From positions 66,680 to 130,679 of the forward strand of contig JBFWJY010000002.1 of assembly GCA_050252955.1 (NCBI GenBank): DNA of 64,000 bases. Reading direction: 5' to 3'. Positions 4,678-63,324 of this stretch are shown here, piece by piece (the stretch's first letter is position 1; each line of letters begins with the position of its first letter). A program made the position numbers and the translations under genes. The stretch comes from Desulfomicrobium sp. (GTDB lineage Bacteria > Desulfobacterota > Desulfovibrionia > Desulfovibrionales > Desulfomicrobiaceae). The notes below the pieces were generated by a model. The model saw nothing but the letters and a program-made list of their open reading frames with translations, was not told where the DNA came from and did not search any database.

Positions 4678-5724
4678 TCACAGGGAGTCACAGACGCCGC
4701 GCAGGCCGACAGTGCCATTCGCGTCCCACGGAATCGCATGCGTGTAGAGACAACGCGCGCCGCAGTACACGCCGGCGCTCCAATAGCCCCCGCCAATGAA
4801 CGCACGCCAGGAAGCGTGGTACACGCCACCGCGCGGAATAGCGGCGTCCTTGCCGACGTTTACGGCCGCAGTGCTCCATACCCATGTTCCGCCAACATCA
4901 TAATGATCATCGAGCCAGTCCCAGAGATTCCCCGCAGCGTCCACGACATTATACTGGCTGACAGCCTTGGCCACCGCCCCAGCGAGCGCCGGGCCCGTGT
5001 TGCTCGTATGCCCCCAGGCCGTGTCATTGCTCGAATTCGAGCCCTGAGGCGCTCCCTCTGCGTAGCGCAGAAACTCTTCCACCGTCGGGAGGCGCTTGCC
5101 CGCGTTGCTGATCAGCTGGTGGAAGTCGGACCGGCTGTAAATGTTGTCACGGATCAGCGCAGCCCCGTACCTACTCACGGGGATATTTTCTGGCCAAGTC
5201 CCGGGTCCTTCCGAGTTTAAATAGATATCCACCCAGAGGCGGCCGGGGACAACCTCGACCATTCCCGACGGGTCGCAGGACGGACGATGGTGTAAGTCCC
5301 AGCACGAATTCGGCACGATGCCGACAGGCGGGACGTATGTTGTATTGTATCTGTAGGCGATGCCACGAACGCGCCCGACATGAAACCCGCCAACCTTGCG
5401 GCTGGTCTCGGCAGACTGCCCGACCGGATATGTTGAATTCTTGGACGCCAGCCACGCAGCAACGCCGCTTGGATCCTGGATGGCATATATATAGATGTCG
5501 TCTCCAAGCGTGAGACTCGAAAAGGACCCATCGTTGTTACCCTCGGCAAGCGGATCCCACCCCAGGGCCTGGCGTAGGAGGTACCCCTTACCGTTGCCAC
5601 CGATATTGACCATCCCCTCAGGGAGCGAAAGCACTTCGCCGCCTGGCTCCTTGGAAATAGATCCCAGCAAGCTAAAAAAACCGGCCGCCTGGGCCGGGAT
5701 GATAAACAAATCTCCTGCAGCCAT
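4678..5724 (-). CDS. Tail fibre / receptor-binding protein with C-terminal FGE-sulfatase (C-type-lectin-fold) domain
   Basis: Last gene of the tail module. C-terminal motifs AAGNLWDWLDD, RGGVYHASW and GLRGVC resemble the GNVWEW / RGGSW / GFR signature of FGE/CLec-fold domains. Confidence 0.7.
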   Translation of the reverse strand: MAAGDLFIIPAQAAGFFSLLGSISKEPGGEVLSLPEGMVNIGGNGKGYLLRQALGWDPLAEGNNDGSFSSLTLGDDIYIYAIQDPSGVAAWLASKNSTYPVGQSAETSRKVGGFHVGRVRGIAYRYNTTYVPPVGIVPNSCWDLHHRPSCDPSGMVEVVPGRLWVDIYLNSEGPGTWPENIPVSRYGAALIRDNIYSRSDFHQLISNAGKRLPTVEEFLRYAEGAPQGSNSSNDTAWGHTSNTGPALAGAVAKAVSQYNVVDAAGNLWDWLDDHYDVGGTWVWSTAAVNVGKDAAIPRGGVYHASWRAFIGGGYWSAGVYCGARCLYTHAIPWDANGTVGLRGVCDSL

Positions 5725-18691: not shown

Positions 18692-19168
18692 TTAGATGTT
18701 GAAGGCGATTTCGACATTGCCCGAAGCATCGGGCGCGCCCATGAAGATGCACCCGGGCACAGCCACGCCCTGGGACATGGCGATATCCCCGACGACAAAG
18801 CTTCCCGTAGCCGTAAACACGACCTTGACGGGCGTGCCCTTGACCGGCGTCGAAGTCTCGGCAGCGGACATTTTCACGGACATGTAGCCGGAGCGCATCA
18901 CGTCTCCGATCTGTCCGGCCTCGATGCCACCGCCACCCAGGACGTTGTCGGCAAGCGCACGGGCCTGGAAGGGGAACGGGCGGGCCAAGAAGCCGTAAAC
19001 GCCTTTGGCCTCGACAGTGGCCGCCACGATCTTTCCGGCAGCGTCCAGCTGGACAGGGCCGCCGAAGGCAATGGCGGAAGCGGCCACGGCCGGCTCGACC
19101 TGGGCGTCCGCCTGGCGGGAGATGTTGCCGGGGAATCCGGCGGGCATACGTTCAGTAAATACGGGCAT
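18692..19168 (-). CDS. Putative head decoration/cement protein (DUF2190-like)
   Basis: 158 aa, Gly/Ala-rich beta protein between the scaffold and the major capsid. Confidence 0.45.
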   Translation of the reverse strand: MPVFTERMPAGFPGNISRQADAQVEPAVAASAIAFGGPVQLDAAGKIVAATVEAKGVYGFLARPFPFQARALADNVLGGGGIEAGQIGDVMRSGYMSVKMSAAETSTPVKGTPVKVVFTATGSFVVGDIAMSQGVAVPGCIFMGAPDASGNVEIAFNI

Positions 19169-19176
19169 GTTGCCTC

Positions 19177-20439
19177 CTATTTCCCGGTCAGGGAATCACG
19201 GAATTTGCGGTTAAGGGCGTTGATGTCCGCCGGGGTGACGGCCTTTTTCGCGTCCGCCGTCTTGCGCTTACCGGCAAGGGCTTCCGCCGTGCGGTCGTTA
19301 TTGCGGGCGGCGACGACCTCGGACGCGGCCATGAACGCGGCGTCAAGGGTCAGGCAGTCAGCCTTTCCGATGGCGGTTCCTCGCAGGCATCCGTCCACGA
19401 CCCTGGCGACAGCTTCGTCCTTCATGGCGCTGCGCAAGGACATGCGCTTGACCGTGCAGGCCGAATCGCTCGTATTGAAGCGCAGGCCCGGAGCCAGGAG
19501 CCCGGCACGGCGCACAATGGCGGCGTCTGCGGTCTTGCGCTTCGAGGCGCTGTCCTTGGCCTTGGCCGGGTCGTCTTCATCGGCGGCCGGATCTTCATCC
19601 GCGGCCTCTTCATCACCCAGGGGGTCTTCGTCCTCGCCAGCCTCGGGATCTTCATCCTCGTTCTTGGGCGGGATACGTTCCACCAGGGTGCGCAGCAGGA
19701 CCAGGATTTCGTCCAGCTTCTCATCGCTGTCCGTGGCGGTCTGCTGTTGCTCTTCGGGGGCCTCTTCTTCGTCCTTGGCCACCTCTTCAGCTGCCTCGTC
19801 GAGAGCGGCCTTCACCTTGGGGTTCTTGAACAGACGGTCCAGGAAGCCCGACTTCTTTTTCTTCGGCATGTGAGACTCCTTGTCTTGAATTGCGCAGCGG
19901 CTACCGCACCGTCCGTGCGGCACCAACGCGATATGATTGCCAACAATGGCGAACTGCCGCCCAACGCCCGGCGCCATCTCTTCGTATTCGGCGTCATAGC
20001 CACACGACACTTCCCGCAAGGGCTTGTCTTCGGGCTTCCCGCCTTGCTTGGGCGCGATCAGGAAAATAGCCTCCTGGTCCGTGATCAGCAGATCCGCGAG
20101 CAGCAGATCCGAGGCCTCTCCCTCCCCACGCCGGACATTCTGAGCATGGCCACAGGTCAGCTCTTTCCAGTTGTCGGGAGTCACAAAGTCTTCGGGGTGG
20201 CCGACGGTCACGGGCTTGCCCTCGAACGACGCTACGGTCTCGGGGGCAAAGACGTCTTCGGGCTGCCGATACACCAGCACCGTTTCTTCGGTCGCATGCG
20301 CGGCAATCTCTTCCGGGAGCTCTTCAGGCAGGTAGTGCATGACCCCAGTCCGGGCGATGGGCACGTCCAGGCACAGAAGATAGCCTTCTGGCGTGATCCG
20401 GATATTCTCGGAAAGGGCGCTGGTAGTATGGTAACGCAT
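19177..20439 (-). CDS. Prohead protease/scaffold protein (Mu I-like, DUF2213)
   Basis: N-terminal MRYHTTSALSENIRITPEGYLLCLDVPIARTGV. Central, highly acidic scaffold-like tract (EDEDPEAGEDEDPLGDEEAADEDPAADEDD). Confidence 0.7.
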   Translation of the reverse strand: MRYHTTSALSENIRITPEGYLLCLDVPIARTGVMHYLPEELPEEIAAHATEETVLVYRQPEDVFAPETVASFEGKPVTVGHPEDFVTPDNWKELTCGHAQNVRRGEGEASDLLLADLLITDQEAIFLIAPKQGGKPEDKPLREVSCGYDAEYEEMAPGVGRQFAIVGNHIALVPHGRCGSRCAIQDKESHMPKKKKSGFLDRLFKNPKVKAALDEAAEEVAKDEEEAPEEQQQTATDSDEKLDEILVLLRTLVERIPPKNEDEDPEAGEDEDPLGDEEAADEDPAADEDDPAKAKDSASKRKTADAAIVRRAGLLAPGLRFNTSDSACTVKRMSLRSAMKDEAVARVVDGCLRGTAIGKADCLTLDAAFMAASEVVAARNNDRTAEALAGKRKTADAKKAVTPADINALNRKFRDSLTGK

Positions 20440-20641
20440 GAGGCCAACGCTATGCGCGCCGGCCTCTTGGGGTCAGTCGGAATGAATTCAGCGTGAGGAA
20501 GGTGGGTTTGTAAGAGCGAGCGAACCTAGCAGGACGCTCTGTAAACGGCCCGTAAACGGGCTAGAATCGATCGGATGGGAAAAACCGGGGCGTTGTTCGG
20601 TTCTGAGGCTTGAACGCCTCTCAGGGCAAATATGGACGTTT

Positions 20642-20878
20642 TCACGCCGTGGGCTCCAAGGCGGGCTCACACTGGTCGAGTTTTACCGCTCCGGAGGCCC
20701 ACGTGTGCTCCCCGTCAACGTCGCCGATCAGGAACTCGGTTTCATAGGCGCGGCCGCCAAGCAGGTCGATTACCCGGCCCGTCGTACCGATCGGAAGCCG
20801 ATGAACGACCGAATGGTCAAAAACGTCTTCGACGTCCAGCGGCGTGACCAGGCGGATAGTGCCCCCTTCGCGGATCAT
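20642..20878 (-). CDS. Small DUF4926-like protein
   Basis: 78 aa. GTTGRVIDLLGGRAYETEFL resembles DUF4926 as I recall it. Its ATG overlaps the MuF stop (ATGA). Confidence 0.6.
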   Translation of the reverse strand: MIREGGTIRLVTPLDVEDVFDHSVVHRLPIGTTGRVIDLLGGRAYETEFLIGDVDGEHTWASGAVKLDQCEPALEPTA

Positions 20879-22131
20879 GTCGTGCTCCTCTTCTTCGGAA
20901 TGTAGCAGCTTGTCAGACGCGGGACGGTCGAAATGTTCCGGCCCGATTTGTCCCTGTCGTAAATCCAGGCGCTGAGCACGTCAACGGTCGTTCCGTTTGG
21001 ACCCGTAACCGGCGTCAGAATTTCGAAGCGCTCCCCATGCTCATCGGCCTTCCCTCGCTTGGCCGGGAGGTGCGGGGCCAAGGACATGATCTGGCTCTCG
21101 ATCAGATCCGCATGGCTCGGATCAGCCCCGAGCAACTTCTTGAACAGGACCGCCTTGGCCCGTCCGCGCGGATCCGCAGCCTCAGGATCCAGGGAATACG
21201 CCGTCAGCTTGCGTCGGTCGAACTTGGCCCGTTCCACGTTGACCAGGGGAGACTCCGGCACGTGCGGGATGACGTGGCTTGTGGACTGCTTTTCCCATTG
21301 CGACAGAGCGGACTTGGTCCCGGTCTCCATCTCTGTTTCCTGCGTGGGCATCGGTGACGCGTAAACGCCACCCGTTTCCCTCGGGATAACCGGCTCAGGA
21401 TAGCACCGGCAATTCGGGAACTCCCCAGCATGGCCCGTCATCCTGTCGATCGTGGGCGGGTTGTCCCATTCCACGAACTTGCCTTCCATGGCCCGGTGGC
21501 TTTCGCGCGTGTCCCCGTCCCTGGTTGTCCGCCAAATGTAGCCCGTCGATCCAACGGACCGGGCGCGGGCCGTGGTCAATGCGGTTCCGGCCTTGCTGAC
21601 TTCCGTCCTGGCGATGGTCAAGGCTCGCGACTGATTGACTTCGCCCACGCGTTCGATGCGCTTGGCCAGATCCTCGGCCCTGGACCCGGCCGCCATGTTC
21701 TCGCGCACAATGCCGCCCACCTGGTCGGCCGCGCCGATGACCATGGACCGAATCAGACTGGCGTTCTCCTCGATGCGCTCACGGACGGCATCGCCCACCT
21801 CTCCCGAAGACAGAAGGGTGCGGACGTCCAGGCCCATGCGCCCAGCCAGGGAGCGCCACGCCTGGTCATTCTTGCGGCGTACGCCCGTCACCATACTGGC
21901 CGCCGCCTGCCTGGCCCACGGGTCGATCACTTCGGCATATTCGCGCAGCGCCTGCTCAGCCTTCTGGGGGTCCCGGCGGGCCACCTCGGCAATCTTGGAC
22001 GCGACAGCGGTCAGCTGCCGGGCATAGCGCTTCGTAGCCACCTTGGACGGCGCAAAAGACGACGAATTGTCAGCGTCGCCCCATCCCCATGACCGCCCCT
22101 GGATCGGGCGGTCCCATTTACTGCCCGGCAC
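20875..22131 (-). CDS. MuF-like head morphogenesis protein with extra C-terminal DUF6883-like module
   Basis: MuF core ...TARTEVSKA...WRTTRDGDTRESHRAMEGKFVEWDN...FPNCRCYPEPV. GTG start at 22131, 8 nt after GGAGG. The last ~122 aa (KLTAYSLDP...GRAKAVLF...GPNGTTVDVLSAWIY...PRLTSCYI) look like a separate domain. Confidence 0.7.
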   Translation of the reverse strand: MPGSKWDRPIQGRSWGWGDADNSSSFAPSKVATKRYARQLTAVASKIAEVARRDPQKAEQALREYAEVIDPWARQAAASMVTGVRRKNDQAWRSLAGRMGLDVRTLLSSGEVGDAVRERIEENASLIRSMVIGAADQVGGIVRENMAAGSRAEDLAKRIERVGEVNQSRALTIARTEVSKAGTALTTARARSVGSTGYIWRTTRDGDTRESHRAMEGKFVEWDNPPTIDRMTGHAGEFPNCRCYPEPVIPRETGGVYASPMPTQETEMETGTKSALSQWEKQSTSHVIPHVPESPLVNVERAKFDRRKLTAYSLDPEAADPRGRAKAVLFKKLLGADPSHADLIESQIMSLAPHLPAKRGKADEHGERFEILTPVTGPNGTTVDVLSAWIYDRDKSGRNISTVPRLTSCYIPKKRSTT

Positions 22132-23518
22132 CAGGCCACCCTCCGGCAAGCTCTTCAGGAAGACGCCCCTCAGGCAGCGGCGGCACCGAATCTTCTTTCT
22201 TGGCCTCTTCGATGTCCTGGTCCGTGATGCCTTCGAATCTGCCGGAAGTCCGGCTGGAATCTCGCAGCTCGGACAAGGCATGGGCGCGGGTGATGACGCC
22301 GCCGGCGTAGAGCGCTGAAACAGCTTGCGCGTCTGCCGTGGCGATTTGCGAGCGCTCCATTTCCGTCGGGCGGTACAAGGACCGGAAAACGAAGTCGAAG
22401 CCGTCAGGCAGGGGTCTGCCCCATATCGATTGCGACAAGATGGCAAAAAGCGCCTCCATCGGCGCGTGCAGGTCATCTTCCTGCTTGGTGCTGATCGTGT
22501 CGTAATAGGTCCGAAGGTCGGATTCGCCTGTGCTAAAGCCCTTGGAAGACTGCCCCAAGAGTCGCACCAGGGGAATGCCCGTGGCCCCGGATATCTGCTC
22601 CGAAAAGGCCTGCAGGGCGTCGTAGATGCCCGCGAACGTCCATCCGTGGGTCGTAAACGTATCGTTCTTGTCCAGCAGCGTGATGCCCTCGTTGGACTGC
22701 ATTTGGCGCACCATCGTAAACATCTTGAGAAGCGCAGCCTCGGCTTTGCCCCCGGTGGCCAGGATTTCGCGCAGCCGGTCAACGCCGATCACCCGCAGAA
22801 ACGAGCGATACAGCATGTTCGCGGCTCCATGGGTGGCGCTGTCCAAGGCAAGGATCCGGTCATAGGCGCGGTCGACCATGCTCCCGCCCCAATACTGCTC
22901 AGAACGGCGGGCCTCGTCTGGGAGCTCCACGCCCACGAACCGAATGGCCCGGCTATGGTGGATCGTCTGTCCACGCAGCGCCTGGGCATGCACCCGGTAC
23001 CCGACAGGATACCCCAGCATCGGCCCCAGCTCGGTGATGCCTTCGTCCAGGGGGGTGACCTGGTGCCGGTCCAGCACGTAGAGCCCACGGAATGCGCCCT
23101 TGGCCACCGCAGAGACGTCCAGGGGGGTCGACAAGTCTTCACCGTCGATCAAGATCACGGCGATGGCCCCGCCATAGAGCCCGGCCCACTTGATGGCGTC
23201 CGTCAGCCGGGCATGGACCCCTGTCCGGCGCATCTGCCGCAAAAGCTCTTCCTTGTCGCCTGGGTCCATCTGAGAGCGTATCTCCACGCCACCGCTGATC
23301 ATGTCCTCGGCAACGACGTCGATCATGCGACCCACGACCCAGCTGCTGCGGTACATGTCGTCAAGCTCGACTCGGCTCCTGGTCGCATAACGCCCAGGGG
23401 TGTACCCGCTGGCCGCCAGCATGTTGTCTTGGCCCATGCCCAGGCGTCCCGTGAAATTGTCGAAACCGTCCGCGGTGAACTTCTTCCCGCCCGGCTTGTG
23501 GTCCCGTCGTCTACCCAT
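22118..23518 (-). CDS. Portal protein
   Basis: 466 aa between TerL and MuF. Resembles DUF1073/HI1409-type portal proteins, from memory. Confidence 0.75.
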   Translation of the reverse strand: MGRRRDHKPGGKKFTADGFDNFTGRLGMGQDNMLAASGYTPGRYATRSRVELDDMYRSSWVVGRMIDVVAEDMISGGVEIRSQMDPGDKEELLRQMRRTGVHARLTDAIKWAGLYGGAIAVILIDGEDLSTPLDVSAVAKGAFRGLYVLDRHQVTPLDEGITELGPMLGYPVGYRVHAQALRGQTIHHSRAIRFVGVELPDEARRSEQYWGGSMVDRAYDRILALDSATHGAANMLYRSFLRVIGVDRLREILATGGKAEAALLKMFTMVRQMQSNEGITLLDKNDTFTTHGWTFAGIYDALQAFSEQISGATGIPLVRLLGQSSKGFSTGESDLRTYYDTISTKQEDDLHAPMEALFAILSQSIWGRPLPDGFDFVFRSLYRPTEMERSQIATADAQAVSALYAGGVITRAHALSELRDSSRTSGRFEGITDQDIEEAKKEDSVPPLPEGRLPEELAGGWPGAGQ

Positions 23519-24965
23519 TCGCCAATGCCTCCCACACGGACAGTCCGTGCGATTTCAAGTATCTTAGCGCCTGTGTCGTGGCGTCCACCTGGTCATCGTG
23601 CCCCGCAGCGGGAAAACTGATGAGTTCCTGAACATAGTCCCGCACCCAATGGAACATGTCGTCCTCGGGGATAAACACGTTCCCGGCGGCCCACAGAGGC
23701 GTCACGGCATACGCGCGGGACACCTTCGAGCCATCCGGCTCAACCGGCACAAGCCCGGCAATCTCATCCCGCAGGGCGTCCATCACCGCCGGGCCGTTGG
23801 CCTTGTCTTCCACCAGCACCGCAGTGGCCTGGGGGTACTGGGCGGCCATGGTGCACACCGAGCTTTTCGAGGCCGTGAACCCCATTCTGGAACGCACCTG
23901 GTGCAGCAGGAAATACTGCACGCCCTTGCGCCCCCAGACCTGCCCGACAACGAAGTCCGACCCGTCCGTGTCCTTGAACGTCATGTCCCAGGAGCAGATC
24001 ACTTCATCGAAGGCATCCGGAAGGTTCCCGATGTTCCAGCGCCGGATCCAGTCTTCCTGGAAGATGTTGCCGCCTTCCTGCACCGGGTTCTGCTGGTACA
24101 GCGCGCTCCACTGCGCAGGGGACAGCATGGATTTGGTCTCTTGCAGCTTCTCAAGAGGGTGCAGCTCTGGCACCAGGGCGCGGCCGTCGGCATCGATAGC
24201 CGGAAATTTGAGATGCCTCGCCCTGGGATTGTTCTTGGCTACGGTGGCCACCAGGTCGTCTGTCGCCCAGCTTGTGGCCATGATGATGTGCCCGGAATGC
24301 TTGGATAGACGTGTCAGAAAAACCGTCTCGTACCAACGCTGAATGGTCCGCTTGATGGTCGAAGAGCGGGCCTCTTCCTCGTTCTTGATCGGGTCGTCTA
24401 TGATCCCGATGTCCACGGACTTACCCGTGAGAGGGCCGCCCACGCCTGCGCATACGTAATATCCCCGGCGCCCGGGGATATCGAATCGATCGGAGTTCCG
24501 CAGGCTTTGCCCCTCCATCGTCACAACCCGCTTGGGGTTGAGCGATATCTCCGGGAAAAGCATCCTGTAGGCGTCATCCATCATCAGCCGCTGAACATCC
24601 CTGTTCATGTCCCGAGCAAGGTCTGCGGCATACGAGCACGCCGCCAGCCTGGAATCCGGATAACGTCCGAAGACAAACGGCGGGAAGCTCCTCGACACCA
24701 GCTGGCTTTTCCCATGCTGCGGCGGGGCCTGCAGAAGCAGGACAGGCCGCCGGCCTGCTGCCACATCCTCCAGGAACTCATCTAGGGCCGCGCATACGGT
24801 CGTTGAGAACACGCTATGGTGATACCCGGGGAACGTGTAGGAAACAAAAGACGCCATAGTCCTACGGGCGCGTTCGGCCTGAAGCCGACGCAATTCCCGC
24901 TCACGGACGGCGTCTTCAAGCCTGGGCTGCTGCAAGTTCCGAGATTTTGCGTTCAAGTTCTTCAT
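23511..24965 (-). CDS. Terminase large subunit
   Basis: Walker A-like QAPPQHGKS, Walker B-like VDIGIIDDP, C-terminal nuclease region (VEDKANG...HDDQVDA). The start could instead be M37 (24857). Confidence 0.85.
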   Translation of the reverse strand: MKNLNAKSRNLQQPRLEDAVRERELRRLQAERARRTMASFVSYTFPGYHHSVFSTTVCAALDEFLEDVAAGRRPVLLLQAPPQHGKSQLVSRSFPPFVFGRYPDSRLAACSYAADLARDMNRDVQRLMMDDAYRMLFPEISLNPKRVVTMEGQSLRNSDRFDIPGRRGYYVCAGVGGPLTGKSVDIGIIDDPIKNEEEARSSTIKRTIQRWYETVFLTRLSKHSGHIIMATSWATDDLVATVAKNNPRARHLKFPAIDADGRALVPELHPLEKLQETKSMLSPAQWSALYQQNPVQEGGNIFQEDWIRRWNIGNLPDAFDEVICSWDMTFKDTDGSDFVVGQVWGRKGVQYFLLHQVRSRMGFTASKSSVCTMAAQYPQATAVLVEDKANGPAVMDALRDEIAGLVPVEPDGSKVSRAYAVTPLWAAGNVFIPEDDMFHWVRDYVQELISFPAAGHDDQVDATTQALRYLKSHGLSVWEALANG

Positions 24966-34948: not shown

Positions 34949-37027
34949 TTAACCGTTTACCGCGCAAATCTGGTACATTTGACGAAACCCATCAGCCTCA
35001 TTGCTGGCCGCGTAAATGCGGGCCCACTTGGCCTCCGCTTCGGTCAGGTCCTCGCGCGCCTGAAGGACCAGCAGCAGCTTGTAGCGCTGCTGGGCAGTCG
35101 CCGGGGGCACAAAGCCCGGCACGATCTCACGTGCCTGCTCGGTGACGGCCACGGCGGGGATGTGGGCGTTTACGGCATCGGCGGCGGCTTCGAGTTCCGG
35201 GGTGGTGTAGACGGTGGAGCGCTGGTCAACGCCCTTGGCGCGAATGGCCTCTGCGCGCTTGCGGTGGTGCTCGCGGATCACGGGCATGGCCTGGCCAGCC
35301 TCGGTCAGCTTGGCCATGGCGCGCATCTCCTTGGACACGGCCTTTGGAGCCGCCTGGCTGACGCGCCGCATGGCCTTGGCCTCTTCGCGCATCTGGTCAG
35401 CGCTCAGGGCGTCTGTCCGCGATGCCTTGCACATAAAGTTGCCGTCATCGTCGAACACATACGCCCAGGACAGGTCCGCAGGATCCATTCGGACCTGCAC
35501 GCGGTGGCCGACCAGCCCGCCCAGCTCCGGCGCGACATAGAGGCCGGAGGCGCAGCGCAGGCCCTTCTTGCCCACATCTCGGAACCCGCCGCCGCTGGCC
35601 AGGGGCACCAGCAGGACGTCCAGGGCGCGTTCATTTTCAATCCGCCTGACCGGCATGATCCATTCCTGGGCAACTTCCCAGGGCGTGCGGCCGCCCAGCC
35701 CTGCATGGGGGCGGTGGGCATAGGTGTTTTCGCACCAGTCGTCGCAAAAGGCCTGCAACTCCTGGGGGGAGAAGGCCATGGACAGCTCCTGGGGGTTCTT
35801 GCGATCCATGAGGCGCTTGGCGAAGGCCTCGCGCTCTCGGATCTCCTGGCGTGTGGCCACATTGTGGCCCACATAGCAGGGGCAGATCGTCAAAAGATGG
35901 TGCGAGAAGGTCCGGAACGCGCGTTCGATCCCCGGTTTCAAATCGGGCCGGAACGGGGGCAGGATGGTCTGCAGGACGCCCAGCGAATGGAAGACCTGCT
36001 GCAGGTAGCTGGCAACAAAATCCTTGCCGTTGTCGGTCACGACTTCCTCGGGAGCGCCCCAATCAATGAGGCAGCGACGTGTCAAAGCTGCCACATCGCG
36101 GGCCGTGGACGTGGGCACCACTTCCAGCTTCAGGCGACGGTCGAAAATATTGATTACGCCGATGATTGCGTAGCGCTTTCCGTCGGAAAGCATGATGTCC
36201 GAGGGGGTGCCGTCATACTCCCAAAGCTGGTTTTGCCTGACAATCAGCTCGTAGGCGTCGCCACAGGCGGCCATGAAGCGGCTCCGCCACTTGTCCGGCG
36301 CCTGGACATACATCCATTCGCCCGGGTGGGCCTTCTTCCACTCGGAAACCCACGCCTGTAGGCGGCGCAAAGACGGGACTTTCTGAAATTTTGCTTCAAG
36401 CCATTCGCGGATGAGCTGAGTCGAGGCATTGGGGTGCTCGGCCAGCATGCCCAGGATGGATTCGCGCATCAGGGGGGTGCTTTCGATGATGCCCGTTCCC
36501 TTGCGGTGTTTACCAAACTTCCCGCCAAGCGCGGCAGGTCCTTCTTTCTCCTCGGCTTCGAGCCAGTTCTTCACAGAGTTCGGGCTGAAACTCGGGAGCT
36601 CCTCACGCAGCCAGGACTCCGCCTCAATCTCGCCCGCAGCCCACCGCACTGCGAAGGCCTCGCGACACGGAGTGTCCGCAAGGTTGGCCCTGGCCGCGAA
36701 CGATTTGTAAAGGGCGATGATCGCAGTTCTTGTCGCGAACCTGATCTTTTTCTTGCCCTTCAGCTTCATAATATCGGCCAGGCCCGCTTCTTTGGCCGGG
36801 GTGATGGCAGGCGGGGTGTAGGGGCACGACTTGGTGGCGATGCGCACGCTCACGTCTTTGGGTAGGCCTGCGACTGGAAACAGCTTGGCCCTCCCTTCCC
36901 ATATTGCCGGCCATCCTCCTTTTTTTGCCATCTTATCTACAGCCTGCCTGGAGCAACCCAGGATTTGCCCGATGTCTGCGGCAGAGAGCGCCTCTTTTTC
37001 GCTGATGGGCTGATCTACTTTGGCCAT
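34949..37027 (-). CDS. MuA-like DDE transposase
   Basis: 692 aa. N-terminal HTH (ADIGQILGCSRQAVDKMAK), then an rve-type core with DGTPSD, VVTDNGKDF and YAHRPHAGLGGRTPWE. Confidence 0.9.
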   Translation of the reverse strand: MAKVDQPISEKEALSAADIGQILGCSRQAVDKMAKKGGWPAIWEGRAKLFPVAGLPKDVSVRIATKSCPYTPPAITPAKEAGLADIMKLKGKKKIRFATRTAIIALYKSFAARANLADTPCREAFAVRWAAGEIEAESWLREELPSFSPNSVKNWLEAEEKEGPAALGGKFGKHRKGTGIIESTPLMRESILGMLAEHPNASTQLIREWLEAKFQKVPSLRRLQAWVSEWKKAHPGEWMYVQAPDKWRSRFMAACGDAYELIVRQNQLWEYDGTPSDIMLSDGKRYAIIGVINIFDRRLKLEVVPTSTARDVAALTRRCLIDWGAPEEVVTDNGKDFVASYLQQVFHSLGVLQTILPPFRPDLKPGIERAFRTFSHHLLTICPCYVGHNVATRQEIREREAFAKRLMDRKNPQELSMAFSPQELQAFCDDWCENTYAHRPHAGLGGRTPWEVAQEWIMPVRRIENERALDVLLVPLASGGGFRDVGKKGLRCASGLYVAPELGGLVGHRVQVRMDPADLSWAYVFDDDGNFMCKASRTDALSADQMREEAKAMRRVSQAAPKAVSKEMRAMAKLTEAGQAMPVIREHHRKRAEAIRAKGVDQRSTVYTTPELEAAADAVNAHIPAVAVTEQAREIVPGFVPPATAQQRYKLLLVLQAREDLTEAEAKWARIYAASNEADGFRQMYQICAVNG

Positions 37028-38760: not shown

Positions 38761-39882
38761 ATGGGAAATGTCATCATCCAGTCAGTTGACGATCTATTCG
38801 GATTCATGGCGTTAACTTTGACTGGAGAAGCGAGATGGGATGAGGTAGATCTTGATCGACTTCATGTGACTATCCCTGTGCGTGTTTACGGCCCTACTCG
38901 GGACGGCAGGATTGACCCTCCAGGCGCGCAGCTTATCCAGGATCTGCAACGACATGCCGTAAAGGCTTTTCGAGAAATTGGAGATACTACAACTGGCGGG
39001 AGAAGCACGCAACTTCGCGTCTCTGTTCAAGAAAATTGCGATTTTTGGGACATCGATGCTACTGCACTTATCAAAGAGGCAATACTCAAAATGTCTGGAG
39101 ATCAAATTACAGCTGCCATATTTTTCTTTTTAATACTTGGTGCTGGATATTTTGTTTTTAAAAAGCACCAAGATACAAAATTAGAAATTATGAAATTGCA
39201 AATTGCTTCTGATGAAAAGAAAGCGCTATACGAGCATGAAGAAAAAATGATTACAGGACTTTCTGAATTACGCGAAAAATCAGAAGAAAAAAACGGCATA
39301 GCGTTGCAAGCATTAGAGGTTTCCAAGGAGTCGCTTGCCGTTGCGCACGACTTTGCATATAAGATGATCCAAAATGCAAATTTAAGCGGAGATGATGCAC
39401 AGCGGCCTATTAGAAGGTTTTCGAAAACACTTCGAAAGAATGAGACATTATCAATCGGTGGAGAAGAAAGACTTACAAAGAGAGAGGCATTAGAAGCAAT
39501 TGGAAATATTAAAAAAGATGATTCACTTTATTATACACATGCAGATGAGACCTACGGTATTGCCGGATTAATTTTTAGCGGTGAATCTCAAGGGCTGCGA
39601 GTAATTTTTGAAGGGCAAGAATCATTTGCGATTTTGGAAAGGCTTGATGCAGACATAAAAAGTAAAATTTTAGAAATAGCCGACGAAAGTATGGAAATGA
39701 AAAGCGTTCGAAACATGCCTTTGCAGATGGATATATATTTTAAATCAAGCGGAATTAAATACGGTGTAGTTATTGGGGTTGGCCCAAAGCGTCCAAAATT
39801 AAATCACTATACTTTATCCCAGATCCCTGGAGGAGTCCCAGCAGCCGACTGGATCATCCCTGGAACAAGAGCCATTTCATAA
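38761..39882 (+). CDS. Orphan AT-rich membrane protein (prophage cargo)
   Basis: 373 aa. One central TM (ITAAIFFFLILGAGYFVF) followed by a K/E-rich coiled-coil region. Purine-rich GAAGGGAG upstream and its own terminator. No family recognised. Confidence 0.75.
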   Translation: MGNVIIQSVDDLFGFMALTLTGEARWDEVDLDRLHVTIPVRVYGPTRDGRIDPPGAQLIQDLQRHAVKAFREIGDTTTGGRSTQLRVSVQENCDFWDIDATALIKEAILKMSGDQITAAIFFFLILGAGYFVFKKHQDTKLEIMKLQIASDEKKALYEHEEKMITGLSELREKSEEKNGIALQALEVSKESLAVAHDFAYKMIQNANLSGDDAQRPIRRFSKTLRKNETLSIGGEERLTKREALEAIGNIKKDDSLYYTHADETYGIAGLIFSGESQGLRVIFEGQESFAILERLDADIKSKILEIADESMEMKSVRNMPLQMDIYFKSSGIKYGVVIGVGPKRPKLNHYTLSQIPGGVPAADWIIPGTRAIS

Positions 39883-55978: not shown

Positions 55979-56227
55979 ATGAGACAAACGAACGTATTGA
56001 CTTCGCAGGCAATAAGAAAAACAATGTTTGCAAGAAAATTGGGCTGACGGTCACGAGTTCTTTCTACTGGATAATGCTCTCTTTGCGATGAAGAATCTTC
56101 ATTGACCCATACGCTTACGCCAGTCCAACCATTCATATTCATTACTTTTTTGATGCTTTCCGAGAAAGCTATGCCGGCCCCACAGAAAATATCTAAATTA
56201 TCTAATTTTATTAAAAAAGGATACATA

Positions 56228-57226
56228 ATGTTTAATGAAAAGAGCATTCTTATAACTGGAGGTACGGGATCTTTTGGAAATTCTTTTGTTCCTATGACTC
56301 TGAGCAAATTTAATCCCAAAAAAATTATAGTATTTTCACGCGACGAGATGAAGCAATGGGAGATGGCAAAGAAATTTCATGGCGATTCAAGAGTTCGATT
56401 TTTCATTGGAGACATTCGTGATAAAGAAAGATTGCAAAGGGCTCTGGATGGAGTTGATTTTGTAGTTCACGCAGCAGCGACAAAGATAGTTCCAACAGCT
56501 GAGTACAATCCATTCGAATGTGTAAAAACAAACATTAATGGCGCCATGAACCTTATCGATGCCTGTATCGACAAAGGTGTCAAGCGGGTAGTCGCTCTTT
56601 CAACGGATAAAGCCAGCAGCCCCGTAAACCTGTATGGAGCGACCAAGCTCGCTTCAGACAAACTTTTTGTGGCTGGAAATTCCTACTCTGGTGGGCATGG
56701 AACTCGTTTTGCAGTGGTACGCTACGGCAATGTCATGGGGTCACGCGGCTCGGTCATTCCCTTCTTTCTCTCCATCAAAGACAAGGGAGTTTTGCCAATA
56801 ACCGATGAACGCATGACACGATTCATGATTTCGTTGGAACAAGGTGTCGAACTGGTCTGGCATGCTTTCGAGGACATGGAGGGTGGCGAAATATACGTCA
56901 AAAAGATTCCATCCATGAAGGTCACCGATCTCGCCCTAGCCGTTGCTCCCGAGGCCAAGCTTGAGTTCGTAGGCATCCGACCGGGTGAAAAGCTGCACGA
57001 GCAGATGATCGGTGAGGACGACTCATACTACACGTACGACTACTCAGAACATTACAAGATTCTTCCCGCCATCAACAATTGGTCGAACTGCAGCAAACGG
57101 ATCAAGGACGGCAAAAAAGTCCCAGAAGGTTTCAGCTACACCAGCAACAACAATTCCGAATGGATGACTCCTTCTGAATTAAAATCGTGGATCGAAGCCA
57201 ACCACAACATAATTGGAAAGATCTAA
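56228..57226 (+). CDS. pseB: UDP-N-acetylglucosamine 4,6-dehydratase (inverting), PseB
   Basis: MFNEKSILITGGTGSFG...YGATKLASDK (SDR Y-x3-K). ATG at 56228 is preceded by AAGGA. First gene of the AT-rich island. Confidence 0.85.
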   Translation: MFNEKSILITGGTGSFGNSFVPMTLSKFNPKKIIVFSRDEMKQWEMAKKFHGDSRVRFFIGDIRDKERLQRALDGVDFVVHAAATKIVPTAEYNPFECVKTNINGAMNLIDACIDKGVKRVVALSTDKASSPVNLYGATKLASDKLFVAGNSYSGGHGTRFAVVRYGNVMGSRGSVIPFFLSIKDKGVLPITDERMTRFMISLEQGVELVWHAFEDMEGGEIYVKKIPSMKVTDLALAVAPEAKLEFVGIRPGEKLHEQMIGEDDSYYTYDYSEHYKILPAINNWSNCSKRIKDGKKVPEGFSYTSNNNSEWMTPSELKSWIEANHNIIGKI

Positions 57227-57228
57227 TC

Positions 57229-58389
57229 ATGATTCCCTACGGTCGCCAACAAATCTGCCAAGCTGATATTGACGCGGTAGTTACCGTCCTACGTTCGGAT
57301 TTCCTTACGCAAGGTCCAGTGGTTCCATGTTTCGAGCAGGCAGTCGCAGGCCATGTCGGAGCCGGGCACGGAGTTGCGGTAAACAGCGCTACCTCGGCTC
57401 TACACATCGCCTGTCTGGCACTGGGGCTGGGACCTGGGGAGTGGCTTTGGACAAGCCCAATCACCTTTGTGGCTTCGGCAAACTGCGGGTTATACTGTGG
57501 AGCTAAAGTCGACTTTGTTGACATTGATCCGCGTACGTACAATCTGTGTCCTAACGCCTTGGCGAAAAAACTCGAACATGCGGAGCGTGAGGGTCGCCTG
57601 CCCAAGATCGTGGTCCCGGTCCATCTTTGCGGCCAACCCAGCGACATGGCGGCCATCCATAACTTAGGAAAACGTTACGGATTCAGAATCATTGAGGACG
57701 CATCTCATGCGATTGGCGGTAAATATAGAGGAGAATTCATCGGCAACTGCCGGTATAGTGACATTACAATTTTCAGTTTCCATCCCGTCAAAATCATCAC
57801 AACCGCCGAAGGCGGCATGGCGACAACCAATGATCCTGATTTGGCTGAACGGATGTCCCTCCTGCGGAGTCATGGCATCACCCGCGATCCAAGCGTGATG
57901 ATACATGAACCCGACGGCCCCTGGTATTACCAGCAGATCGATCTCGGATACAATTACCGCATGACCGAACTGCAGGCCGCCCTAGGCGTCAGCCAGATGA
58001 AAAGGCTTGACGAATTCGTCTCGCGTCGCCACTCGCTGGCGCGGCGCTATGACAAAATGCTGGCCGATTATCCTGTGATTACGCCTTGGCAGCATCCCGA
58101 CTCGTATTCTGGCCTTCACCTGTACGTAATCCGTCTGAACCCGAACCAGACTGACAGGCCTCGGTTCAAGGTCTTCGAAAGCCTGCGCAGGCAAGGTATC
58201 GGCGTGAATGTACATTACATCCCTGTTCACACTCAGCCCTACTACCGCAAGTTGGGCTTCAAGCCTGGAGATTTTCCGCAGGCGGAGAACTATTATGCCG
58301 AGGCCATCAGTTTACCCATGTTCCACGCCATGACAGATACTCAGCAAGACTCTGTCGTGGAGGCCCTTGGCAAGGCGGTGAGAGAATGA
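57229..58389 (+). CDS. pseC: UDP-4-amino-4,6-dideoxy-N-acetyl-beta-L-altrosamine transaminase, PseC
   Basis: DegT/DnrJ/EryC1-family motifs (IPYGRQ...DASHA...SFHPVKIITTAEGG). Lies after pseB. Confidence 0.85.
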   Translation: MIPYGRQQICQADIDAVVTVLRSDFLTQGPVVPCFEQAVAGHVGAGHGVAVNSATSALHIACLALGLGPGEWLWTSPITFVASANCGLYCGAKVDFVDIDPRTYNLCPNALAKKLEHAEREGRLPKIVVPVHLCGQPSDMAAIHNLGKRYGFRIIEDASHAIGGKYRGEFIGNCRYSDITIFSFHPVKIITTAEGGMATTNDPDLAERMSLLRSHGITRDPSVMIHEPDGPWYYQQIDLGYNYRMTELQAALGVSQMKRLDEFVSRRHSLARRYDKMLADYPVITPWQHPDSYSGLHLYVIRLNPNQTDRPRFKVFESLRRQGIGVNVHYIPVHTQPYYRKLGFKPGDFPQAENYYAEAISLPMFHAMTDTQQDSVVEALGKAVRE

Positions 58390-59090
58390 AATTAGCTGTG
58401 ATTCCGGCAAGAGGAGGTAGCAAGCGCATTCCTCGCAAGAACATCAAGACATTCTGCGGCAGACCCATGATTGCCTGGACAATCGAGGCGACACGGCAGA
58501 GCGACTGCTTCGACAGGATCATCGTCTCAACCGACGATCTCGAAATTGCAGAAATTGCTAGGCAATATGGTGCGGAAACCCCGTTTATCCGTCCTGCAGA
58601 GCTTTCCGATGATCACACAGGAACAATCACTGTCGTGGCGCACACGGTAGACTGGTGTCTGAGGAACGGCCCAGAGAAACCGGATGAAGTGTGTTGCGTG
58701 TATGCCACTGCCCCATTCATTCGACCAGAAGATTTGCGTCAAGGGTGCGAAGCACTGCTTCGCCATGGTTGCGACTATGTATTTTCTGCAACCAGTTTCC
58801 CGTTTACGATTCAGAGAGCAATCCGAATCAAAAAAAACGGTCGGGTCGAGATGTTTCATCCAGAGCACTTCAATACCCGCTCACAGGACCTGGAAGAAGC
58901 TTATCACGATGCGGGCCAATTTTATTGGGGCCGAGCGCAGGCGTGGCTTGAAAGAAGACCAATATTCAATTCCGACGCAGTCCCGATCCTCCTCCCACGC
59001 CACCGGGTCCAGGACATCGACACCATCGAAGACTGGTTGCGAGCGGAATTAATGTTCAGGGCCCTGACTCAGATTGAGAAAAAGACATGA
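58386..59090 (+). CDS. pseF: Pseudaminic acid cytidylyltransferase, PseF
   Basis: N-terminal AVIPARGGSKRIPRKNI, typical of CMP-sugar synthetases. ATGA-coupled to pseC. Confidence 0.8.
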   Translation: MKLAVIPARGGSKRIPRKNIKTFCGRPMIAWTIEATRQSDCFDRIIVSTDDLEIAEIARQYGAETPFIRPAELSDDHTGTITVVAHTVDWCLRNGPEKPDEVCCVYATAPFIRPEDLRQGCEALLRHGCDYVFSATSFPFTIQRAIRIKKNGRVEMFHPEHFNTRSQDLEEAYHDAGQFYWGRAQAWLERRPIFNSDAVPILLPRHRVQDIDTIEDWLRAELMFRALTQIEKKT

Positions 59091-60655
59091 CCCCAAAGAT
59101 TATCGTATTTCGCGTCGATGCCTCACTGGAAATAGGTACAGGCCATGTCATGCGATGCCTGACTCTGGCCAGCGCCTTGCGCGATCAAGGTTGCGATTGC
59201 CACTTCATATGCAGGGAGCATCCCGGCAACCTGAGCAACCTGATCAGCGAACGCGGGTTCAAGGTATACAGACTCCCCGTGGACAATATGCCGGCGGAAT
59301 TCAGCCCAAGCCCCGATTCGTCAGAATATGCTCCATGGCTTGGGTCAGATTGGCGAACAGACGCGACTCAGGTTCGTTCAACCATATGCGATCTGACCGT
59401 TGAATGGCTAGTTGTCGATCATTATGCCATTGGTTTTCGCTGGGAAAAAGAATTGCGACCGTTTTGCGGCAAGTTGATGGTCATAGACGACCTGGCTGAC
59501 CGCGAGCATGATTGCGACCTGCTGCTGGATCAGAATCTGGTCGAAGGCTGGCAGGAACGCTATCGCGGAAAAGTGCCCACCAATTGCGGCTTGATGCTCG
59601 GTCCCGAATATGCCCTCTTGCAACCCTTGTACTCTGAACTGCACGACAGGACCCCCCCCCGGGAAGGCCTTGTTCGTAGGATAATGGTGTACTTTGGAGG
59701 AGCGGATGCCGACAACCTGACGGGGATAACCATCTCTGCCTTTACGTCACTCCAGACCGAAGACATCGCAATGGATGTCGTCATCAACCCATCAAGCCCG
59801 CATGCCACATCCGTCCGGCACCAAGCAAAAAAAGACCGGCGAATCATTTTGCACGAAAATCTCCCGAGCCTCGCCCCGTTGATGGTTAAAGCCGACCTCG
59901 CTATTGGTGCTGCGGGAGCCACATCCTGGGAGCGATGTTGTCTCGGCTTGCCTAGCCTGGTGATCACGATGGCTAAAAACCAGGAACCCATTGCCAAACA
60001 GTCAGACAAGACTGGATTAGTCCATTGGATTGGGCAGAAGAATAACGTTGATATGCCCAAATTGGCCCAAGCACTCCAGAGGGTGATCAAAACAGGGCTA
60101 TCAAGCGAATGGTCGCAACGCTGCGCCTCCCTTGTCGATGGACAGGGGATAAAGCGAGTTACAGCCTTAACGCTTCTAAACGCGCAGACACATTTAAGGG
60201 CAAGGCTTGCCCGCCTTAAAGATGAGTCCAAGATTTTACAATGGGCCAATGACCCGCTTGTCCGGCTGAATGCGTTTCAACCGCAATCAATTGACCCAGC
60301 CACCCACCGCAAATGGTTCTATGGTCGATTGCGTGATATCGACAACTGTCAACTCTATATTGTTGAAACAGAGAACGGGATACCCATTGGTCAAGTTCGC
60401 TTTGAAAAAAAAGTAGACATGTGGGAGCTTAGCTATGCATTAGATTCTTGCGCCAGAAGTCGAGGGTTGGGAAAACGATTACTTCAAACCGGTATTTCAG
60501 CTTTTCGAGCAAGCATAAAACGAGCAAAAATTATGGCTAGAGTAAAAAAAGGAAATATACGCTCCTGCAAGGTGCTAAGCGATATTAATTTCCAGCTCGA
60601 AAACATAACTGACGGTATAATAACGTATAGCATAGAAATTGTGCAGCAATTCTAA
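59087..60655 (+). CDS. pseG: PseG (UDP-2,4-diacetamido-2,4,6-trideoxy-beta-L-altropyranose hydrolase) fused to PseH-like GNAT acetyltransferase
   Basis: N-terminal FRVDASLEIGTGHVMRCLTLA (PseG signature). The C-terminal ~170 aa are GNAT-like (IGQVRFE...RSRGLGKRLL). Confidence 0.75.
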   Translation: MTPKIIVFRVDASLEIGTGHVMRCLTLASALRDQGCDCHFICREHPGNLSNLISERGFKVYRLPVDNMPAEFSPSPDSSEYAPWLGSDWRTDATQVRSTICDLTVEWLVVDHYAIGFRWEKELRPFCGKLMVIDDLADREHDCDLLLDQNLVEGWQERYRGKVPTNCGLMLGPEYALLQPLYSELHDRTPPREGLVRRIMVYFGGADADNLTGITISAFTSLQTEDIAMDVVINPSSPHATSVRHQAKKDRRIILHENLPSLAPLMVKADLAIGAAGATSWERCCLGLPSLVITMAKNQEPIAKQSDKTGLVHWIGQKNNVDMPKLAQALQRVIKTGLSSEWSQRCASLVDGQGIKRVTALTLLNAQTHLRARLARLKDESKILQWANDPLVRLNAFQPQSIDPATHRKWFYGRLRDIDNCQLYIVETENGIPIGQVRFEKKVDMWELSYALDSCARSRGLGKRLLQTGISAFRASIKRAKIMARVKKGNIRSCKVLSDINFQLENITDGIITYSIEIVQQF

Positions 60656-60731
60656 CACAACAACTTATACAAAACTTTACACATAAAATAATTGAAATAA
60701 ACAAATTTTTCAACAATAAGGTTTTTAAAAA

Positions 60732-61778: not shown

Positions 61779-61824
61779 AAGCACAAGCATGTTCCTAGAT
61801 CGCTGTTGCCCAAATCTCTCTTAA

Positions 61825-63162: not shown

Positions 63163-63324
63163 TAAAATCCTCGAATCTTAGATGTTGAGTCAGACTGAAC
63201 TTTGCAAGACCGGGCAGCATCATTTTCCGCAAATCCGGCGGCAACCGTCTGCCCGATATTCCAACCCAAGCCTTGCCAAATACCTAAATACGACTGTATC
63301 TATACCAAAACGGAGCACAGTATT

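Follow-up and report, generated by a model that had tools for sequence, protein, structure and literature searches.

A MuF head protein with a C-terminal DUF6883 domain and a coupled DUF4926-type gene in a Mu-like prophage of a Desulfomicrobium-like host: a probable polymorphic toxin and its immunity gene

The window, a 64,000-nucleotide stretch of DNA analysed as a whole, contains a Mu-like transposable prophage of a Desulfomicrobium-like host. The element occupies ~4.6–38.6 kb of the window (34 kb) and was found in two of 25 genomes of the genus. In addition to MuF, it carries genes for MuA, MuB, a c-type repressor, Gp27, TerL, and cement and capsid proteins. The MuF gene sits between the portal and protease/scaffold genes, and the features of this part of the prophage are as follows.

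22118..23518, minus strand: portal gene (Phage_portal_3; Pfam E 4e-94), whose end overlaps the start of MuF by 14 nt
20875–22131, minus strand: MuF gene, with a GTG start and a TGA stop
21382..22131, minus strand: N-terminal region and core of MuF (P0001 residues 2–251), ending at ...FPNCRCYPEPV; presumed capsid- or portal-targeting part
21247..21381, minus strand: linker or pre-toxin stretch (residues 252–296, 45 residues), conserved only among MuF-DUF6883 proteins
20899..21246, minus strand: DUF6883 / BECR-Tox3 domain, a predicted toxin (residues 297–412; Pfam)
21208–21210 and 21196–21198, minus strand: codons of K309 and Y313, candidate active-site residues on the first helix
20908–20913, minus strand: codons of T408/S409 on the last strand, which together with R369 are further candidate active-site residues
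20642..20878, minus strand: 78-aa immunity candidate, a divergent DUF4926 protein with an SH3-like beta-barrel
20440..20641, minus strand: 202-nt spacer from the cassette to the protease/scaffold gene
19177..20439, minus strand: DUF2213-family prohead protease/scaffold gene (Pfam E 4.7e-45; PHROG head maturation protease)

Translation of MuF starts at the GTG at 22131–22129, and the protein is therefore 418 aa long. This codon is preceded at a distance of 9 nt by GGAGG, and its position is identical in P0003, a homologue with 96% identity. Residue numbers used here follow P0001 (419 aa), which begins one codon before the GTG. The first 250 residues of MuF make up an ordinary minor head protein of the MuF/SPP1-gp7 type, with Phage_Mu_F (PF04233) at residues 139–244 (Pfam E 1.1e-21, 78 bits versus a cut-off of 29.6) and a further match of the core to TIGR01641 (SPP1 gp7). 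A tblastn search of 50,697 phage records yielded 506 MuF matches. Since all of the matches listed stop near residue 250–253, with none spanning 80% of the protein, the core boundary is placed at ...CRCYPEPV, in agreement with a previous reading of the DNA (hereafter, the sequence-only reading). In the same kind of records, neither the C-terminal module nor the 78-aa ORF had a tblastn match, and the 8-kb head region had none by megablast. Within the linker, W280 and E281 are invariant in an alignment of MuF-DUF6883 proteins, and the junction at which other C-terminal alleles are exchanged lies at ~residue 270–276.

The sequence-only reading had named the C-terminal module following the linker as DUF6883, and Pfam bears this out (PF21814; E 3.5e-14, 53.4 bits versus a cut-off of 27; 56.7 bits in the genome search). 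An AF2 model of the domain (pLDDT 94.9) is composed of three helices (model positions 23–30, 38–51 and 55–71) and four strands (74–80, 83–93, 99–110 and 122–127), the topology of Colicin-like BECR proteins (pre-alpha helix, alpha helix and four-stranded sheet). Its top PDB match in Foldseek is 6CP9, the CdiA-CT of Klebsiella pneumoniae 342, with a probability of 1.00, although the match is moderate (E 4e-3, TM 0.57/0.64, 15–18% identity). As modeled, the last 120 residues of the MuF protein are a DUF6883 (BECR-Tox3) domain with a predicted colicin-D-like BECR fold. A phmmer search of PDB sequences with the domain gave nothing meaningful, and the domain has no match in NCBIfam or PADLOC. When the family profile was compared with PDB sequences, a borderline, partial match of ~40 residues to QueD (6-carboxytetrahydropterin synthase; E 0.0015) was obtained, but it was judged spurious because Foldseek did not rank the QueD fold. 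The Ct_MAD profile of Jamet et al. (2017) spans 251 positions, and the 19 letters with which its consensus begins do not resemble the window's 120-residue domain.

Across 154 DUF6883 domains, the characteristic residue is kept at K309 in 152, Y313 in 153, K327 in 151, R369 in 132, W390 in 153 and T/S409 in 145; K309, Y313, K327, R369 and S409 are all present in the window's domain. The conserved residues are located on the first helix and the last strand, which is where the BECR preprint (bioRxiv 10.64898/2026.08.28.747851) places Colicin-like active sites. Judging by the secondary structure of the model, the candidate residues would cluster in space. At column 321, just after the first helix, the window's domain has Asp, whereas 122 of the 154 family members have His; a histidine is important for catalysis in CdiA-CT Kp342 and colicin D (PMC9086364; bioRxiv 10.64898/2026.08.28.747851). 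This histidine is also missing from several of the closest MuF relatives. The other 32 family members do without it, often with Asn instead, and it may therefore be dispensable. Within the MuF clade of DUF6883 proteins, H341 does not vary. Compensation by H341 for the lost H321 was considered and rejected, as the association is weak (10/32 versus 18/122, p 0.04).

The 78-aa ORF is joined directly to MuF. As the sequence-only reading had described, the MuF TGA (20877–20875) overlaps the ATG of the ORF (20878–20876) as ATGA; GAGGAG lies 8 nt upstream of this ATG. The resemblance to DUF4926 that was proposed along with the overlap fails for the protein by itself (P0002), which scores below the Pfam cut-off of 29.1 bits (PF16277; E 0.015, 15.1 bits). 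It holds at the family level, where 15 of 18 homologues match DUF4926 (best E 7.1e-07) and a UniRef entry with 96% identity is named “DUF4926 domain-containing”. From such comparisons, the assignment is credible for the family only. The AF2 model of the protein (pLDDT 90.5) matches SH3 folds, and searches of PHROG, NCBIfam and PADLOC returned no match.

The spacer that follows the ORF is the downstream boundary of the cassette. It contains two tandem CCGTTTAC copies 11 nt apart, a sequence present five times in the window versus 0.9 expected, and the matching position in relatives has dyads of the CGTT(T/C)A..(A/G)AACG type. The spacer is possibly a late-promoter or activator site. Neither an ORF of at least 60 aa nor an HTH gene was found in the gap. 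A scan of positions 20300–21500, confined to sigma-70 consensus promoters and intrinsic terminators, found neither, and Rfam returned nothing for 19000–23000 other than a sub-threshold radC match inside the cement gene.

DUF6883 is carried by 833 proteins among 1.84 billion representatives, and in almost all of them it is C-terminal, with a median of two residues beyond the domain. Its N-terminal partners include Phage_Mu_F (8 proteins), RHS (5) and PT-TG (2), plus one protein each with PT-HINT, CdiA-type DUF637/Fil_haemagg_2, eCIS_core and WXG100. A survey of MuF homologues, which the sequence-only reading had put forward as a check, found that the C-terminal extension is absent from ~35 of 48 genomic and 43 of 80 viral relatives, which stop at the core. 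A relative at locus L017 matches the same MuF core to residue 276 and then diverges into an unrelated 199-aa tail containing HELAH, followed by a different 71-aa ORF. Neither of these two has a Pfam match, and the HELAH motif prompts the idea that the tail could be a metallopeptidase. By sequence comparison, the extension is optional and swappable rather than integral to MuF.

The small ORF is distributed with the domain and not with the core. A homologue is located downstream in 12 of 13 MuF-DUF6883 loci in the first set, and in 28 of 37 viral MuF-DUF6883 loci versus none of the 43 core-only loci (Fisher p 4e-14); in most core-only relatives, the protease/scaffold gene comes directly after MuF. 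The statement of the sequence-only reading that the two families form adjacent pairs elsewhere also proved right. A strong DUF4926 gene is found downstream of DUF6883 in all four non-MuF contexts, namely Rhs/LysM, CdiA-type, T6SS-linked Rhs and stand-alone, and the stand-alone form occurs as two-gene pairs at loci L057 and L058. The product of the 78-aa ORF is an SH3-like protein of the DUF4926 type, and its gene accompanies DUF6883 wherever the domain occurs.

These features are best explained by a polymorphic toxin of the MuF kind and the immunity gene that belongs to it, located in the head-morphogenesis module of a Mu-like prophage, a reading to which we assign a probability of roughly 0.8. 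Four characteristics of MuF polymorphic toxins are found here: an N-terminal MuF domain, a place among the packaging and head genes of a temperate phage or prophage, a variable C-terminal domain common to other toxin families, and a small ORF (<150 aa) downstream. That the domain and the 78-aa ORF form a toxin/immunity cassette of this kind is very probable. The sequence-only reading had suggested an effector with a cognate partner, and this part of it is supported by the occurrence of DUF6883 on other toxin families, the BECR fold and the co-occurrence of the partner. Counting against the explanation as a whole are the missing column-321 histidine, the moderate match to 6CP9, the sub-threshold DUF4926 score of P0002 alone, and the failure of the scan to find a sigma-70-like site that could express the immunity gene in a lysogen.

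In the proposed mechanism, the C-terminal domain would be a metal-independent endoribonuclease that employs Lys309 and Tyr313 of the first helix and Ser/Thr409 of the last strand in catalysis. The window's domain is probably an active RNase. A tRNase would be the most likely kind, although tRNA as the target is a tentative assignment, with the odds somewhat against it. The MuF part would carry a few copies into the procapsid via the portal, and delivery of the toxin to the next infected cell would accordingly accompany that of the DNA; the chances of such putative virion delivery are about even. Binding of the 78-aa protein would keep the toxin inactive in the cell that produces it and, if the protein is expressed there, also in lysogens.

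The substitution at column 321 also admits a reading without toxicity, in which the C-terminal domain is a BECR module of attenuated catalysis, with RNA or DNA binding or a structural function in the head as its role, as has been proposed for the inactive MuF-C/PBECR domain of Mu gp30. The small ORF would then encode a chaperone or a partner in assembly. In its favor, Asp stands in place of the family histidine here and several close relatives have lost that histidine, Iyer et al. (PMC5512222) describe an inactive PBECR in the MuF of Mu, and the fourth match in a BFVD search is a MuF C-terminal domain protein (probability 0.98). This reading is unlikely, since the other candidate catalytic residues listed above are kept, conservation across the domain is strong in the clade, and a DUF4926 partner is inherited together with it, a retention to be expected only where the domain is harmful. 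Similarly unlikely is a further reading, in which the MuF-DUF6883 proteins of Desulfovibrionales Mu-like phages form a clade with a different RNA target. Their active site may be rearranged, because the usual His is lost and His341 is invariant, and the injected RNase would act early in infection, in counter-defence or in the takeover of the host, rather than as a toxin for inter-bacterial competition. Its targets could be, for instance, particular tRNAs or guide RNAs, as Iyer et al. (PMC5512222) speculated for PBECR domains.

Alternatively, the pair might serve mainly as a toxin-antitoxin or superinfection-exclusion module of the lysogen (abortive infection or prophage addiction) and not as a virion-delivered effector. 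The existence of the stand-alone pairs indicates that a DUF6883/DUF4926 module can function without a delivery domain, but in this prophage the toxin forms part of a structural head protein encoded in a late operon, and the sigma-70 scan detected no separate promoter for it. Mu-like prophages keep their late genes silent in the lysogenic state. Moreover, the other partners of DUF6883 are secretion or delivery domains, and a lysogen module is quite improbable. The 78-aa ORF could also be an independent accessory gene, anti-CRISPR or otherwise anti-defence, in a slot that is variable among relatives and, as in Pseudomonas Mu-like phages, lies just upstream of protease/scaffold. Its analogous position had led the sequence-only reading to this idea, which was not sustained because the family of the ORF is tied to DUF6883 and absent after core-only MuF genes. 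Homologues are also encoded after DUF6883 where there is no phage context, in Rhs, CdiA-type and stand-alone loci, the ORF is translationally coupled to MuF, no aca-like HTH gene or promoter-like site adjoins it within the regions scanned, and it has no PADLOC or PHROG match. The accessory-gene reading is very improbable, being largely refuted by the co-occurrence data. Finally, position in the head module is all that would favor a conserved morphogenesis gene like Mu G, an outcome that the sequence-only reading had named as counting against its own proposal. The ORF is missing from every core-only relative, many of which have MuF and then directly the protease gene, and PHROG has no match for it; its distribution refutes a Mu G-like identity, which is hardly credible. 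The toxin/immunity reading is preferred over all of these.

The architecture itself has already been described computationally, in 2017 (MuF toxins, PMC5576092; PBECR, PMC5512222) and in 2026 (BECR-Tox3/DUF6883 with DUF4926), and its discovery here adds little, as the literature already contains both the DUF6883/DUF4926 pairing and the fusion to MuF. The two enzymatic types of MuF toxin that have been tested, Apk2 and Bxa, do not include an RNase. The window copy is a clean, intact, single-copy example in a complete Mu-like prophage of a cultivable Gram-negative anaerobe, and could serve for testing the packaging and injection of a MuF-fused RNase and its RNA target.

Anti-CRISPR loci of Mu-like phages have their own promoter, a downstream aca (HTH) gene and independent variation, none of which was found for the 78-aa ORF (sigma-70 sites being those scanned). 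CdiA-CT Kp342 is a ColD-like tRNase with the active site K157/Y160/H170/R252/T255 (PMC9086364), and it is stimulated by EF-Tu/EF-Ts/GTP. Like the window's domain, it has Lys and Tyr on an N-terminal helix and, ~100 residues further on, Thr/Ser on the last strand. The window's domain differs in lacking the equivalent histidine, in its delivery system and in its SH3-like immunity protein; CdiI Kp342 is not among the best 50 fold matches listed for the 78-aa model. The PBECR/MuF-C domains of polyvalent proteins and Mu gp30 (PMC5512222) are likewise BECR RNase domains fused C-terminally to MuF or portal and predicted to be packaged and injected. The available text describes them as injected effectors and does not mention a cognate immunity gene, whereas DUF6883 comes with one and is also common to Rhs, CdiA and T7SS-type toxins.

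The MuF toxins of temperate phages (Jamet et al. 2017, PMC5576092) share with the window copy a MuF beside the prophage portal gene, a swappable C-terminal toxin common to other families, and a small downstream ORF. The tested members, Apk2 (p)ppApp synthetases and the Bxa ADP-ribosyltransferase, are the sole characterised ones according to PMC12226406 and PMC11699363, and in contrast to these the window toxin is a predicted RNase. Known toxin domains in Jamet et al. are mostly from Firmicutes, whereas the window copy has a Gram-negative host. The closest likeness in family terms is to BECR-Tox3, for which the association of DUF6883, DUF4926 and Phage_Mu_F has been reported (bioRxiv 10.64898/2026.08.28.747851): the toxin family, the downstream partner family and the frequent Phage_Mu_F fusion are the same, as is the placement in the Colicin-like branch of BECR proteins. 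Relative to other BECR-Tox3 members, the window copy lacks the usual histidine and has a divergent DUF4926 partner that is under the Pfam cut-off alone, and its setting is a Mu-like transposable phage in a Desulfomicrobium-like sulfate reducer.

A Mu-like transposable prophage occupies ~4.6–38.6 kb of the window. In addition to its Mu-type transposase, it encodes a MuB-like AAA protein, DUF3164, Gp27, an SLT lysis enzyme, a DUF3383 sheath and baseplate J, with a CI-type repressor gene on the other strand. The genes of the head module follow one another on the minus strand in the order listed.

Features of the prophage around the MuF gene
34949–37027: Mu-type transposase (rve and Mu-transpos_C)
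23511–24965, minus: large terminase, head module
22118–23518, minus: portal (Phage_portal_3, Pfam E 4e-94)
start at 22131, minus: MuF gene (Phage_Mu_F and DUF6883), between the portal gene and the 78-codon ORF
20642–20878, minus: 78-codon ORF, downstream of MuF
20440–20641, minus: 202-nt spacer between the 78-codon ORF and the protease/scaffold gene
19177–20439, minus: DUF2213 protease/scaffold, followed by the cement protein and then the major capsid protein

MuF homologues occur in only two of 25 genomes of the genus, and the prophage is therefore accessory. Each domain is single-copy in its own genome, three IMG/VR contigs carry copies that are 97–99% identical, and an annotated protein of Desulfomicrobium macestii is 96% identical to the 78-aa product.

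Several other features of the region can be recorded. The spacer holds two copies of CCGTTTAC (20541–20548 and 20552–20559, 11 nt apart), a sequence found five times in the window against 0.9 expected; relatives at only ~50% protein identity have tandem CGTT(T/C)A..(A/G)AACG dyads in the matching position. The spacer also contains a GC-rich hairpin ending at the protease ATG, and these repeats and the hairpin could be a late-activator site or promoter. The second domain of the tail fibre (4678–5724, minus) is Mtd (E 3e-20), a type of fibre tip that diversity-generating retroelements employ. Just past the prophage repressor, a 373-aa ORF without a Pfam match (38761–39882, plus) has a third-position GC of 0.33 versus ~0.75 in its neighbours and looks like foreign cargo. 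Over a series of plus-strand ORFs at 56000–64000, GC falls from ~0.68 to 0.42–0.54, probably marking another horizontally acquired island.

The MuF gene starts at a GTG codon (22131) that is preceded by GGAGG at 9 nt, and it shares 14 nt with the end of the portal gene. Since a homologue that is 96% identical (P0003) starts at the same codon, the protein has 418 residues; residue numbers used here follow P0001, which begins one codon before the real start. Pfam places Phage_Mu_F at 139–244 and DUF6883 at 297–412, both above cut-offs, in agreement with the DUF6883 assignment made in the sequence-only reading. The ATGA shared by the MuF stop and the small-ORF start, also described there, is present in the sequence, with GAGGAG 8 nt upstream.

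Judged by sequence comparison, the C-terminal extension is not part of MuF proper. None of the 506 MuF matches among 50,697 phage records covers 80% of the query, and those listed end at residues 250–253, just past CRCYPEPV, where the core had been proposed to give way to an appended module. Absence of the extension from MuF homologues, a check proposed at the outset, proved common: ~35 of 48 relatives on one-genome-per-species contigs stop at the core, and the best 80 IMG/VR loci comprise 43 without the extension and 37 with it. The ~10 genomic relatives that carry it belong to the Desulfovibrionaceae, Telmatospirillum and one Selenomonadaceae MAG. The extension can also be exchanged. Locus L017 of a Desulfovibrionaceae MAG (JAVBNZ010000022.1, 371–2019) has the same MuF core, with 47% identity to residue 276, followed by an unrelated 199-residue tail containing MWHELAHAAH and an unrelated Cys-rich 71-aa ORF. 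Neither tail nor ORF has a Pfam match, and together they may be an undescribed MuF toxin/immunity allele. With the swap junction near residues 270–276, this arrangement is the exchange of warheads by which polymorphic toxins are defined.

A full HMMER pass with the last 135 residues of MuF against 1.84 billion representatives (E ≤ 1e-3) recovered 833 proteins with a DUF6883-type domain. The domain is the extreme C-terminus in almost all of 161 matches examined (median of two residues beyond); it stands alone in 30 and follows 150 or more residues in 89. Recognisable partners in 96 matches with long N-termini are Phage_Mu_F (8), RHS repeats (5), Phage_portal (2), PT-TG (2) and, once each, PT-HINT, DUF637/Fil_haemagg_2 (CdiA-type), eCIS_core, WXG100 and T4 gp19. 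Zhang et al. 2012 and Jamet et al. 2017 give criteria under which DUF6883, as the tip of so many delivery scaffolds, counts as a toxin domain.

Homologues of the small ORF lie downstream of 12 of the 13 first-examined MuF-DUF6883 loci (profile E 1e-41 to 7e-8), and the small ORF at the Telmatospirillum locus, outside the scored set, looks similar. Among the best 80 IMG/VR loci, the partner is directly downstream in 28 of 37 with MuF-DUF6883 but in none of the 43 core-only ones (Fisher p 4e-14), which supports the suggested cognate pairing. The nine MuF-DUF6883 loci lacking a recognised partner include four with an adjacent 79–87-aa ORF and one with an incomplete flank. Adjacent ORFs of this size in L090, L093, L095 and L096 (IMG/VR) and in L013 match neither the immunity profile nor Pfam, and the diversity of partner genes may extend beyond DUF4926. 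The proposed resemblance of the window's own product to DUF4926 is weak when it is searched singly (E 0.015; 15 bits versus a 29-bit cut-off), and gains credibility only across the family, of which 15 of 18 members match (best E 7.1e-07).

In Pseudomonas Mu-like phages, the acr site lies upstream of the protease/scaffold gene. The small ORF has the same position, and on that likeness, which is limited to place, it had been suggested to occupy an anti-CRISPR slot. However, the cassette has no aca-type HTH gene, a consensus scan of 20300–21500 found no sigma-70-like promoter, the 202-nt gap holds no ORF of at least 60 aa, and the small ORF has no match in PADLOC or PHROG. The slot is usually empty, since in many core-only loci no more than ~20 nt separate the MuF stop from the start of the protease/scaffold gene. 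The ORF instead tracks the toxin domain. The deciding test between cassette and slot came from DUF6883 contexts without phage, namely a Rhs/LysM protein (L055), a CdiA-type protein, a T6SS-linked Rhs (L056) and stand-alone 110-aa genes (L057, L058): in four of four, a strong DUF4926 gene of 65–81 aa follows, in line with the adjacency of the two families described in the sequence-only reading. An anti-CRISPR-slot gene is thus a very improbable reading.

The AlphaFold2 model of the toxin domain (51-sequence alignment; pLDDT 94.9, pTM 0.86) has three helices followed by a four-stranded sheet. In the PDB, its best match is the toxin chain of 6CP9 (E 4e-3, TM 0.57/0.64), which alone reaches a probability near 1. 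The chain is the CdiA-CT toxin of Klebsiella pneumoniae 342, which belongs to the colicin-D-like BECR tRNases and cuts the acceptor stem of tRNA-Ile(GAU), relying on a Lys-Tyr-Thr triad together with His and Arg (K157, Y160, H170, R252, T255) (PMC9086364). The highest-ranking BFVD matches (TM 0.75 and 0.69) come from uncultured siphoviruses, share the domain and are named "minor capsid proteins"; the fourth is a "MuF C-terminal domain" polyvalent protein. The 78-aa protein is modelled as an all-beta SH3-like barrel (pLDDT 90.5), a predicted fold unlike that of CdiI of Kp342, which is absent from the 50 fold matches listed for it. This difference accords with the rule that toxins of one kin can be paired with immunity proteins of unrelated fold (PMC9086364).

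Near-invariant positions over 154 aligned domains are K309 (152), Y313 (153), K327 (151), W390 (153), G336, G367, R369 (132), G378 and T/S409 (145). The first helix bears K309 and Y313, and the last strand S409; a BECR preprint assigns Colicin-like active sites to these elements (bioRxiv 10.64898/2026.08.28.747851). The K-to-T/S spacing is ~100 residues, close to the 98 of the Kp342 toxin. Position 321, directly behind the first helix, holds His in 122 of 154 members but Asp in the window's domain; this histidine is also absent from the homologues P0004 and P0007–P0010. H341 is invariant in the ten MuF-clade proteins, with only weak enrichment among domains lacking H321 (p 0.04). Since K, Y and S are kept yet the family histidine is missing and H341 is weakly associated, RNase activity is likely but not assured, with a probability of roughly 0.65.

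Alongside the established domain identities, fold, conserved residues, optional and swappable extension and partner-gene coupling, a mechanism can be proposed. SPP1 gp7, as cited in PMC5576092 and PMC12226406, is a MuF protein that attaches to the portal; each capsid contains a few copies of it, and efficient infection depends on it. By analogy with these properties, the MuF part would bring the predicted RNase into the capsid and then the next cell, and the partner protein would block it in the producing cell. Roles proposed for MuF toxins and MuF-fused domains are inter-strain competition (Jamet et al., PMC5576092) and either takeover of the host early in infection or counter-defence (Iyer et al., PMC5512222).

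The year 2017 brought both the definition of MuF polymorphic toxins (PMC5576092) and a description of MuF-BECR RNase fusions (PMC5512222). MuF toxins tested so far include Apk2 and Bxa (PMC12226406, PMC11699363). The 2026 preprint names DUF6883 as BECR-Tox3, commonly followed by DUF4926 and often fused to Phage_Mu_F. The architecture is therefore already known, and the window case adds only small distinctions: its phage is Mu-like and transposable with a sulfate reducer as host, its toxin domain belongs to a subclade lacking the histidine, its partner is divergent, and the same MuF core carries a sister allele in L017.
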